Origin: Candidatus Latescibacterota bacterium
GTDB taxonomy: Bacteria > Latescibacterota > UBA2968 > GCA-2709665
NCBI GenBank assembly: GCA_965205485.1
Contig: OZ242180.1
Coordinates: 4,448,001 to 4,512,000, forward strand
Direction of reading: 5' to 3'
Length of the DNA: 64,000 bases
The notes under the pieces are model-generated. The model worked only from the letters and a program-made list of their open reading frames with translations. It was not told where the DNA came from and ran no database searches. Shown here piece by piece: positions 38,051 through 39,383 of the stretch. Within the stretch, counting starts at the first letter, position 1, and every line of letters begins with the position of its first letter. The translations under genes were made by a program, and so were the position numbers.

Positions 38051-38079
38051 AAGATATAGAGCTCGTGTGACTTTGTCAA
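38051..38079 (-). promoter_or_regulatory. sigma70-like promoter of rplM operon
   Basis: TTGACA-17 nt-TATCTT. Confidence 0.6.
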
Positions 38080-38093
38080 GCACAAACCCGATT

Positions 38094-38170: not shown

Positions 38171-38427
38171 AAAAAATGCGCCGCGATTCGGGAGCCGGTA
38201 CACCGGCCACATCTCCTCACGGCGCAACTCTTGAGACGGCTTCCATCTCACGGCGCCCCGCACGAGTCGCCGGGGCCCGTCAATACGACGGATCGCCTGT
38301 CTTTCGATGGCTGTTTAGATTCGCCAGGCGCGTTACCAGACGAGATGTTCTCCCGCACCCGGCAGCGCACCTAACTACAGCCACCTCCACTGGTCGTTTC
38401 GCTCATTTGACCACCTCCTTTCTGTGT
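38171..38427 (-). ncRNA. candidate structured small RNA / sORF transcript (~255 nt)
   Basis: Own promoter, series of hairpins, GC-rich terminal stem followed by TTTTTT. Confidence 0.55.
38371..38406 (-). CDS. 11-aa small ORF MSETTSGGGCS
   Basis: AAAGGAGGTG at 38412-38421, ATG at 38406, TAG at 38371-38373. Confidence 0.45.
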   Translation of the reverse strand: MSETTSGGGCS

Positions 38428-38433
38428 AAGCGA

Positions 38434-38462
38434 AATATACGCCACCCGAAAAGGGAAGTCAA
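38434..38462 (-). promoter_or_regulatory. sigma70-like promoter of the candidate sRNA/sORF
   Basis: TTGACT-17 nt-TATATT. Confidence 0.7.
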
Positions 38463-38480: not shown

Positions 38481-39383
38481 TCAGGTCCTTGGATCCAGGG
38501 CGTCGCGCAATCCGTCTCCAAGCAGGTTGAATGCCAATACGGTCAGAAAAATCGCCACACCCGGAAACGTCAATACCCACGGCGCCCGAAGGACCAGTTC
38601 CCGTCCGCCGGTCAGCATGGCGCCCCACTCCGGCGCGGGCGGCTGCGCCCCCAATCCCAGGAAGCTCAGACCGGCCGCATCGAGGATTGCGGTAGCCAGA
38701 CCGAGCGTGGACTGCACGATCAGGGGCGTCAGACAGTTCGGGAGAACCGAAAAGAACAGGATATGGAAATCCCCCGCGCCAAGCGCCCGGACAGCCTGAA
38801 CGTAGTCCTGTCCGCGCACGGAGAGTGCGGATGCCCGTACCAGCCGGGCATATTGGGGCACCGCGACGATTCCGACCGCCAGCATCGCATTCTCCAACCC
38901 GGGGCCCAGGATCGCCACAATGGCGATAGCCAGGAGGATGCTGGGAAATGCGAGCATCAGGTCCATCGCACGCATCAACACCTGATCCAGCGCGCCGCCC
39001 CAGTACCCGGACACGAGGCCGATGGGAACGCCCAGTACCAGTGCGATCAGCACCGCGACAACCCCAATCCGCAGCGAAATCCGCGCACCGTGAATGACGC
39101 GGCTCAGAACGTCCCTTCCAAAGTCGTCCGTGCCGAACGGATACGCCAGCGACGGCGGCTGGAGACGTTCATAGAGATTCTGGGCATAGGGATCATGCGG
39201 CGCCGCCAGTGGCGCGGCGATAGCCAGCACCAGGAAGCCCAGCAGCAGCACGCCGCCCGCGGCCGCCAGCCGGTTCTTCAGGAGCCGTTTCCAGAACAGC
39301 CCGCCCCAGCCTGCGCCGGGCAGGACCTGCGGCATGTCGGCTTCAATAAACGTTCCCCCTGCCGGATGGGATGATCTGTTCAT
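38481..39383 (-). CDS. peptide/nickel ABC transporter permease (DppC-like)
   Basis: PFGTDDFGRDVLSR, EAA-like loop, LSFLGLG, LLGDGLRDALDP. Confidence 0.92.
   Translation of the reverse strand: MNRSSHPAGGTFIEADMPQVLPGAGWGGLFWKRLLKNRLAAAGGVLLLGFLVLAIAAPLAAPHDPYAQNLYERLQPPSLAYPFGTDDFGRDVLSRVIHGARISLRIGVVAVLIALVLGVPIGLVSGYWGGALDQVLMRAMDLMLAFPSILLAIAIVAILGPGLENAMLAVGIVAVPQYARLVRASALSVRGQDYVQAVRALGAGDFHILFFSVLPNCLTPLIVQSTLGLATAILDAAGLSFLGLGAQPPAPEWGAMLTGGRELVLRAPWVLTFPGVAIFLTVLAFNLLGDGLRDALDPRT

Follow-up and report, generated by a model that had tools for sequence, protein, structure and literature searches.

A predicted structured RNA of the Ms_IGR-5 type with an extended Shine-Dalgarno sequence and an 11-codon reading frame in Candidatus Latescibacterota

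A predicted RNA unit upstream of rplM-rpsI

We analyzed a 64,000-nucleotide (nt) stretch of DNA from a Candidatus Latescibacterota bacterium (assembly GCA_965205485.1, contig OZ242180.1, positions 4,448,001 to 4,512,000 of the forward strand), referred to below as the window; coordinates are those of the window, and features of the minus strand are read from the higher number to the lower. On this strand, at 38427-38171, lies the predicted gene of a structured RNA of about 257 nt that carries an extended Shine-Dalgarno (SD) sequence, here called SD1, and an 11-codon small open reading frame (sORF). We hold it almost certain that this is a genuine, independent RNA gene of the Latescibacterota lineage, and we propose that its product is related to the Rfam family Ms_IGR-5 and is operated by ribosomes. 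Its ends were inferred from an ACAC sequence 7 nt past the -10 hexamer and from the end of a T-run; a match to the Rfam family also starts at 38427.

The unit has its own signals for transcription. A sigma-70-type promoter with 10/12 consensus matches, TTGACT (38462-38457) and TATATT (38439-38434) separated by 17 nt, stands where the original prediction from the sequence had placed it, and the hexamers TTGACTT and TATAtT are kept in 35/35 aligned loci from two families. In 1.5 kb, two promoter-like sites were observed against 0.4 expected. At the other end, both the consensus fold and the minimum free energy (MFE) fold contain a terminator, in which a 9-bp stem (38225-38217 / 38186-38178) encloses a nested hairpin and is followed by a T-run (38176-38171). 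This terminal stem had been foreseen too, and 4 of its pairs show compensatory change; a simple terminator scan missed it because the loop holds the nested hairpin. The sequence GAGAUG (38215-38210) in the terminator loop is conserved. With promoter and terminator both in place, the proposal of an independent small transcription unit was borne out in silico, as was the claim that rplM has a promoter of its own. The latter, TTGACA-17-TATCTT (38079-38051, minus), was found by promoter scan, is conserved in relatives, and lies outside the RNA, marking its downstream limit. The region around it, CTTGACAAA (38051-38083, minus), shows hardly any variation in the two families of the order, an unusual degree of conservation for a promoter.

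The gene upstream of the RNA encodes an OppC-type ABC (ATP-binding cassette) permease (Pfam BPD_transp_1 and OppC_N) and has its stop at 38481, and the downstream genes rplM-rpsI carry the Pfam domains Ribosomal_L13 and Ribosomal_S9. Two open reading frames (ORFs) overlapping the RNA unit had no Pfam match. Among the 35 loci, rplM lies downstream of the RNA in 32 and the permease gene upstream in 23, so neither neighbor is obligatory, and the RNA keeps one or the other.

By BLASTN, the RNA is single-copy in its own 5.1-Mb genome and present in 40/41 genomes of the same order, with SD and stems conserved as anticipated. The promoter hexamers, 5' end, SD, frame and terminator are all conserved in the 35 aligned loci, and the first 124 nt are ~85% identical between the two families of the order. 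Model R1, which we built solely from 5' domains of the window's order, detected the RNA in 47/48 genomes of that order; by family, it matched 17/18 genomes of f1, 30/30 of f2, 3/5 of f8 and 1/2 of f4. One relative (G003; 92% complete, 70 contigs) gave no match by BLASTN, R1 or RF02471, the Rfam model of Ms_IGR-5, which may reflect an assembly gap. The copies in f8 and f4 are shorter than that of the window, with frames of 10-15 codons and without the middle domain described below. The smallest, a 76-nt copy in another family of the same class (L190; G117:C66:40042-40117), consists of a 10-codon frame with a terminator directly after it.

Fold, Shine-Dalgarno sequences and reading frame

The RNA is predicted to fold stably (z-score -4.5; 0/200 shuffles equally stable). 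For covariation we used a full-length alignment of 34 relatives, which is the set meant by counts out of 34 below; locus L033, from genus g9, was left out because it can be aligned over its first ~95 nt only. The consensus fold has 57 pairs, 18 of them with compensatory changes. Standard pairs occupy 98.6% of alignment cells, versus 34-49% after sliding the partners by 1-3 columns, and 0/500 column shuffles did as well as the real alignment in pairing, in covariation score or in the count of doubly changed cells. Many of the compensatory changes split the two families and therefore represent few independent events. The helices of the original prediction have 89.7% of cells paired; in the 5' domain and the terminator they match the consensus fold.

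The 5' domain contains three helices. In hairpin P1 (UGGUC/GACCA, 38413-38409 / 38395-38391) the AUG lies in the loop, as had been noted from the sequence and as seen in both MFE and consensus folds; its helix is paired in 100% of cells and invariant, so covariation speaks neither for nor against it. Helix P2 pairs GGUGGCUGU (38385-38377) with ACAGCCAUC (38314-38306) through 9 pairs, closes the 5' domain, and sequesters most of a second SD copy, SD2. The long stem originally drawn here stands in this core, which is paired in 99.7% of cells; its UUAGGU/AUCUAA extension holds in the genus and is kept in 80-85% of cells across the order. One P2 pair shows a series G-C to G-U to A-U, and the A-U form turns codon 9 of the sORF from Gly into Asp. 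Helix P3 (GCCGGG.GCG / CGC.CCUGGC, 38363-38323) likewise had been predicted and is paired in 97.9% of cells. Between P3 and the 3' strand of P2 lies a single-stranded stretch, GGCGAAUC (38325-38318), that is conserved both in the order and in Actinomycetota.

The apical loop of P3, CAUCUC (38347-38342, minus), is nearly invariant, being conserved in 32/34 relatives. By complementarity it could pair with the GAGGUG of either SD copy (with one G-U pair) and with the GAGAUG of the terminator loop. Pseudoknots between this loop and either GAGAUG (possible in 97.5% of cells) or the GAGGUG of SD2 (100%) showed no covariation and no excess over shuffles, so the alignment speaks neither for nor against them.

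The 3' half is built differently from what the sequence had first suggested. The middle domain (38301-38235) was read as three local hairpins, which hold in the window's genus and in 80-85% of cells across the order; a single long, irregular hairpin fits better, being present in 34/34 aligned copies with 96-100% of cells paired. It comprises helices 5-7, with 15 pairs, 8 of which show compensatory change. It is absent from 3 f8 copies and 1 f4 copy, and in the genus g9 copy another sequence takes its place. In the terminator domain (helices 8-10), 8 pairs show compensatory change.

SD1, AGAAAGGAGGUGGUC (38423-38409), can form 15 consecutive pairs with the 3' tail of the genome's single 16S gene, which ends ...GGATCACCTCCTTTCT: 12 Watson-Crick pairs, one G-U and 2 more. 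An SD complementary to the 16S anti-SD had thus been identified correctly, while its extent, given as about 10 nt, was put too short. The predicted duplex of -26.2 kcal/mol ranks second among 26,362 SD-core sites on both strands of the genome, rank 1 being the antisense of the 16S gene itself. It stops 2 nt before the AUG. The partition function leaves the first 13 nt largely unpaired and the AUG unpaired, and it places the GUGGUC part of SD1 in P1; the unpaired probability is 0.54-1.0 for nt 1-14 versus 0.01-0.12 for the GUGGUC arm. The window's order and most actinobacterial copies keep the 5'-terminal ACAC (38427-38424, minus). It cannot pair with the 16S RNA, whose tail ends there.

The motif GGAGGTGG occurs at 38418-38411 and again at 38388-38381, and the repetition noticed in the window was confirmed in 34/34 relatives, where the two copies are exactly 30 nt, or 10 codons, apart. 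The second copy constitutes SD2 (GGAGGUGG, 38388-38381). The spacer from the GGAGG core of SD1 to the AUG is 7 nt, and that from the core of SD2 to the last sense codon is also 7 nt (34/34). A ribosome with the UAG in its A site would therefore have SD2 in the position that SD1 occupies at initiation. In the minimal f4 copy the SD2 spacer is 6 nt, and SD2 (GGAGGUGGG) pairs with CCCACCUC, an exact look-alike of the anti-SD core.

The sORF was found as described, with its ATG at 38406-38404, the sequence MSETTSGGGCS, and its TAG at 38373-38371. An AUG, 11 codons and a UAG are present in 34/34 relatives. Conservation of the sORF thus holds for its ends and not for its peptide, of which there are 14 versions, with non-synonymous changes at codons 2, 4, 9 and 11. 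Directly after the UAG (38368-38370, minus) stands a further start codon, GUG in 29/34 relatives and AUG in 5/34. The ~40-codon frame that this GUG opens in the window was rejected as a gene candidate, as it is not conserved and relatives carry indels. The codon could serve re-initiation, or the change from G to A could simply improve a base pair (G-U to A-U).

Relationship to Ms_IGR-5 and other small RNAs

At gathering scores, Rfam gave no match in the whole 64-kb window. At relaxed thresholds, RF02471, whose cut-off is 45 bits, matched the 5' domain (38427-38288) at 26 bits (E = 7.5e-4 in 801 nt), and the locus was the best RF02471 match in the whole genome (E = 1.1e-3); a second match in the same genome, at E = 0.89, was disregarded. 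The model found the orthologous locus in 46/48 genomes of the order (E <= 0.01 per genome), with scores of 23-46.6 bits, one of which (G128, 46.6) exceeds the cut-off. As a control, Caulobacter vibrioides gave sub-threshold RF02471 signals at E <= 1 and none at E <= 0.01. Two other matches were set aside: a second RF02471 match in genome G013 (30.4 bits), which lacks both SD and sORF and was rejected as a paralogue, and a match of Rfam Scr1601 to the 3' half of the RNA (17.7 bits against a cut-off of 100, E = 0.29), which we took to be chance.

We then wrote a core pattern of 25 fixed bases from the shared core and scanned species-representative genomes, obtaining at least 120 matches. Among the 80 titled matches listed, 78 were from Actinomycetota and 2 from Candidatus Latescibacterota metagenome-assembled genomes; the window's form was carried, among the matches listed, by L059 and L082 (Candidatus Latescibacterota) and by the untitled L146. 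Three actinobacterial pattern loci scored 93-176 bits with RF02471, with one copy per genome. Conversely, R1 matched 38 of 40 actinobacterial loci given to it (out of 117), 30 of them at E < 0.01, and the matches span all 126 positions of the model, including P3 (with its arms GCCAG/CUGGC), GGCGAAUC and the 3' strand of P2, all of which lie outside the search pattern. In an even sample of 121 Actinomycetota genomes, 17/36 RF02471 matches passed the cut-off (4/36 were in unpublished genomes and were left unread), so this cut-off is conservative. Taken together, the pattern, the Rfam scores, the R1 matches, the order-wide matches and the conservative cut-off argue for homology and not chance. 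Plasmids, which are reported to include a carrier of an Azospirillum rre gene, gave no BLASTN match to the 5' domain, and viral contigs gave none to the core pattern, so nothing suggests a mobile or phage origin.

Judged by its sequence, the RNA is a diverged member of the Ms_IGR-5 lineage in an uncultured phylum and is not categorically new. The novelty claimed for it at first falls to this extent, since a described Rfam family matches and an orthologue exceeds its cut-off, and survives in that the window's copy lies below it; in the same way, the locus is unannotated at gathering scores while being a sub-threshold RF02471 homologue. The blocks shared with RF02471 are the 5' ACAC with an extended SD, GAC..GU.GAGGUGGCUG, GGCGAAUC, and the closing CAG.CA(C/U)C. 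In both, a hairpin surrounds the start codon, the GAGGUGGCUG core lies in a frame of 10-14 codons with the stop right after it, and a variable hairpin is followed by GGCGAAUC and by a strand that pairs back to the core. Both are single-copy, have their own promoter, lack fixed neighbors, and are matched by each other's models. In Actinomycetota and Latescibacterota alike, the most conserved part is the block from SD1 through the sORF to SD2.

The Latescibacterota RNA differs from the family as described in several ways. Its host phylum is outside the family's named range, the Actinobacteria. Its frame has 11 codons in the register GGA-GGU-GGC and encodes an unrelated peptide. At exactly 30 nt from SD1 it has an SD2 with the complete GGAGG, and its SD duplex stops 2 nt before the AUG, compared with 5-8 nt in Actinomycetota. 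It has in addition a middle domain of ~65 nt and a nested terminator, which bring it to ~257 nt against 184 positions in the Rfam model. In Actinomycetota the spacer from SD2 to the last codon is 8 nt in 117/117 and 25/25 loci, while that from SD1 to the start varies between 10 and 13 nt.

Ms_IGR-5 ('Actinobacteria sRNA', for small RNA) corresponds to IGR-5, or ncMSMEG15794c, of Mycobacterium smegmatis in the part of PMC10454040 used here, and is listed as expressed in Streptomyces lividans and S. avermitilis in the corresponding parts of PMC8079986 and PMC8780764. Ribosome footprints on its homologues in M. abscessus and M. smegmatis are reported in PMC4974804. Within the literature consulted, no function is assigned to it.

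To compare reading frames, we used the 117 pattern-found actinobacterial loci and 26 of 30 loci from the even sample (three from unpublished genomes and one already counted were left out). In the former, 116 have a 12-codon frame; the start codon is UUG in 70, AUG in 31 and GUG in 16, and the stop codon UAG in 108, UAA in 6 and UGA in 3. In the latter, 25/26 have a frame of 12-14 codons in the register GAG-GUG-GCU, with AUG, GUG or UUG at the start position in 16, CUG in 8 and AUA in 1, and with all three stop codons used at one fixed place. With fixed ends and interchangeable start and stop codons, the frame bears the hallmark of one that is read. The core GAGGUGGCUG reads as Gly-Gly-Gly (GGA-GGU-GGC) in the window's order and as Glu-Val-Ala (GAG-GUG-GCU) in these 25/26 actinobacterial copies, so that the peptides of the two registers, TSGGGC(S/R) and RTREVA(A/V)(R/S), are unrelated. 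The GAGGUG itself is invariant in 26/26 even-sample sequences, both wobble positions included, with some ascertainment bias because the model that found them favors GAGGUG. At the variable position of the core, G changes to A together with a change from C to U on the partner strand of P2, and in the window's order this replaces Gly by Asp. As far as these sequences tell, it is the RNA and not the peptide that the lineages conserve.

Two features of the actinobacterial sample concern the frame. The eight copies with CUG at the start position (8/26; L220-L222, L224-L227 and L229) are most similar to L216, L218 and L219, which carry UUG there; this suggests that very weak initiation is tolerated or wanted. 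Several of the eight keep a His-Lys-Pro start via synonymous changes. Locus L236 (G172, ~1.7 Mb, from the Actinomycetota sample) has the window's register, with the core AGUGGAGGUGGCAGUAGCUAG, the frame ISDHSGGGSS, an AUU start and a 7-nt spacer, so the registers are not cleanly split by phylum.

The closest design described elsewhere is that of rreB and rreR, for which we draw on parts of the report by Hahn et al. 2016 (PMC5711450). There, rreB of Bradyrhizobium is described as a small mRNA of 165 nt whose SD measures 17 nt and whose frame has 14 codons, and it lies next to a tRNA-Gly gene and a sensor kinase gene. It binds 30S subunits, is found mainly in the ribosomal fraction, is weakly translated, and is stabilized when its start codon is removed; these parts give it no known function. 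Its over-expression had no growth effect, and the authors judged titration unlikely, as ribosomes far outnumber the RNA. The 18-residue peptide of rreR, from Rhodobacterales, is unrelated to that of RreB, and both are unstructured. Our literature search, dominated by human RREB1, found no bacterial follow-up work on rreB.

As far as the published description allows the comparison (PMC5711450, in part), these RNAs and ours are alike in being free-standing transcripts with their own promoter and terminator and an sORF, in an SD extended over the whole free 16S tail, in having the 5' part of this SD as a single-stranded seed and the remainder in a conserved hairpin, and in a tiny frame whose peptide varies between clades. 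They differ in that rreB has 16-17 perfect pairs reaching its GUG start and frames of this type have 14-18 codons, whereas in the Latescibacterota RNA a duplex of 12 perfect pairs, or of 15 when one G-U is included, stops 2 nt short of the AUG and the frame has 11 codons. The rre definition, a perfect complement of at least 16 nt that reaches the first base of the start codon, does not cover it.

Other identities fitted less well. In keeping with the original view that the RNA is not transfer-messenger RNA (tmRNA), signal recognition particle (SRP) RNA, 6S RNA or RNase P, the window gave no Rfam gathering-score match to any of these, and ARAGORN found no tRNA or tmRNA gene (0 genes). The RNA resembles the CsrB/RsmZ decoys in its several GGA motifs. 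A search for CsrA genes (PF02599) was positive in 3 control genomes and detected none in the window's genome, which is 97% complete, so the suggested decoy of the CsrA type was rejected.

SgrS/SgrT, RNAIII/hld and SR1/SR1P are structured regulatory RNAs that also carry a short translated frame. Those RNAs keep the peptide-coding module apart from the base-pairing one and have an SD of the usual kind, whereas the Latescibacterota RNA runs its frame through conserved helices and has a maximal SD. The idea of a dual-function sRNA and micropeptide, one of those first offered, retains a real frame with fixed ends and loses the peptide as what is conserved between lineages.

Possible mode of action

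We propose that the RNA is a ribosome-operated, structured mini-mRNA of the Ms_IGR-5 lineage, built like rreB and rreR, whose peptide is a by-product. Our confidence in this reading as a whole is moderate; it combines near certainty about the RNA gene with an estimate of even or slightly better that ribosome engagement, and not the peptide, is the mode of action. The steps that follow are drawn from the complementarity, the fold, the conserved frame ends and SD2 spacing, and the homology, together with the experiments on rreB. The free single-stranded 5' end (ACAC plus AGAAAGGAG) would seed pairing with the 16S 3' tail, and the duplex would zip up to 15 bp and open P1, which presents the AUG in its loop; a seed-and-zip layout of this kind is the arrangement proposed for rreB in the portion of PMC5711450 consulted. 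The ribosome would then read the 11 codons, melting the 5' strand of P2. With the last sense codon in the P site and the UAG in the A site, the anti-SD may re-pair with SD2 and hold the terminating ribosome, which would leave the 3' strand of P2, an anti-SD look-alike, and GGCGAAUC single-stranded until release lets P2 re-form. Ribosome loading would in this way set the conformation of the RNA, its association with ribosomes and probably its lifetime. As for the read-out, the RNA could gauge how many 30S subunits are free or competent, or it could be an effector that acts from the ribosome through its 3' domains.

Several observations weigh against this proposal. The geometry of SD2 and stop is not universal: SD2 is degenerate (CAGGUGA) in 3 f8 copies, and the stop lies several codons further on in both f8 copies that were read through. 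P1, SD1 and SD2 are all invariant and hence beyond test by covariation. The rank of SD1 as the strongest non-rRNA site is narrow (-26.2 versus -26.0, -25.9 and -25.8 kcal/mol), and five other non-rRNA loci have perfect complements of 12-13 nt to the 16S tail (G000:C1 at 2416011 (+), 3249657 (-), 494448 (-), 3536983 (+) and 4879442 (-)). The small RNA is therefore not alone in this genome in having a long SD, as at least two of the five stand in front of ORFs that look ordinary. The score of the window's copy, 26 bits, falls short of the 45-bit RF02471 gathering score. In family f3 of the same class, neither R1 (0/64 genomes) nor RF02471 (0/49) found the RNA, which is either dispensable there or too diverged, absence and divergence being indistinguishable.

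Expression is hinted at by contigs assembled from RNA libraries. They come from four metatranscriptome runs, which belong to at least three studies and are labeled as sponge-associated, and in 4/4 runs they cover parts of the RNA element. Two lie wholly inside the predicted RNA, one of 161 nt at 38256-38416 (100% identical) and one of 211 nt at 38182-38392 (~92% identical). In relatives, a third contig extends 74 nt beyond 38446 into the promoter, and a fourth, 1,459 nt long, covers both rplM and the RNA. The presence of the sequence in RNA libraries is consistent with transcription; as the contigs show neither ends nor strand, gaps in their cover and their depth carry no weight, and DNA carry-over is possible, it falls short of proving a discrete RNA.

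Finally, the peptide shows some constraint, which counts against its being a by-product: in the window's order the third residue is Glu or Asp without exception, and one actinobacterial clade keeps the His-Lys-Pro start through synonymous changes. Both observations would be expected if this were a micro-protein gene, with MSETTSGGGCS as the effector and the RNA structure tuning its synthesis and stability, as would the fixed length, start and stop of the frame in 34/34 relatives and in Actinomycetota, the use of all three stop codons at the same place, which is typical of a true frame, and the ribosome footprints on Ms_IGR-5 homologues (PMC4974804, in part). We nevertheless regard this explanation as quite unlikely, given that the same core yields unrelated peptides in two registers, that 14 peptides occur among 34 copies with non-synonymous change at codons 2, 4, 9 and 11, that the wobble positions of GAG-GUG never vary (26/26), and that the RreB and RreR peptides, in the part of PMC5711450 used, are mutually unrelated and unstructured.

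If translation were incidental, the RNA might silence 30S subunits by occupying the 16S tail, as an anti-SD sponge or hibernation-type RNA. We give this a low probability. Conserved start and stop positions are not explained by titration, and the second of the two SD copies per molecule, which would otherwise suit a sponge, is mostly buried in P2. In its favor stand the 15-bp complement, which covers the free 16S tail and is the strongest non-rRNA site in the genome, and the finding of rreB mainly in the ribosomal fraction; the same portion of the report, with its lack of a growth effect upon over-production and its judgment on titration, points the other way (PMC5711450). Of the ribosome-binding sRNA originally suggested, a ribosome-binding role therefore stands as the best reading, and the plain stoichiometric sponge does not.

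An ordinary trans-acting or protein-binding sRNA is similarly improbable. Here GGCGAAUC, the CAUCUC loop and the 3' domains would be the active parts, with SD and sORF secondary, and such a role would fit a single-stranded GGCGAAUC conserved in two phyla, a near-invariant loop, and an order-specific, covarying 3' domain. It leaves unexplained the SD1-sORF-SD2 block that is most conserved in both phyla, its 3' domains differ between lineages, and it comes with no known target or partner, the CsrA gene having not been found. Least probable of all, to the point of being highly unlikely, is a cis-acting leader or attenuator in which terminator read-through, controlled by ribosomes or by L13/S9, sets rplM-rpsI expression: the RNA does resemble a ribosomal protein leader such as the Rfam L13 leader in lying directly upstream of rplM (32/35 loci), one metatranscriptome contig spans both in a relative, and a ribosome-sensing element beside ribosomal protein genes would make sense, but a strong terminator with T-run and then a separate conserved TTGACA promoter intervene, the linkage is lost in 3/35 loci, Actinomycetota copies have no common neighbor (RNase Z-like or other genes lie downstream), rreB neighbors a tRNA-Gly and a sensor kinase gene (PMC5711450, in part), and the Rfam L13 leader gave no match even at E <= 10.

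A bolder form of our proposal, which we consider unlikely as it stands, is that these RNAs make up an ancient multi-phylum class offering ribosomes a 'test drive'. The full-length complement to the 16S tail would admit only 30S subunits whose 3' end is free and correctly matured, exactly 10 codons would be translated, the anti-SD would be handed from SD1 to an identically spaced SD2 at the stop, and the freed look-alike strand would re-close SD1, so that one ribosome is held per RNA. The cell would thereby have a gauge or checkpoint for the competence of its ribosomes or the supply of free subunits. If this were true, the gauge gene would in this lineage sit beside rplM-rpsI.

Actinomycetota and an uncultured phylum share a core in which an extended SD is joined by a mini-frame of fixed start and stop, a second copy of the SD, and a strand pairing back to that copy. 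This puts the RNA among the more broadly conserved of the bacterial RNAs that still lack an assigned role. Beyond what Rfam and the rreB paper provide, the comparison shows that the family extends past the range of the curated model, and that, the f8 copies excepted, the stop leaves SD2 at an initiation-like spacing from the P site. The change of register while the RNA core stays argues that the act of translation matters and the peptide does not. The Latescibacterota variant appears to have traits of its own in its reading register, the exact 30-nt SD duplication and the extra 3' domains. Together, these features offer concrete, testable handles on the function of Ms_IGR-5- and rre-type RNAs in tractable hosts.

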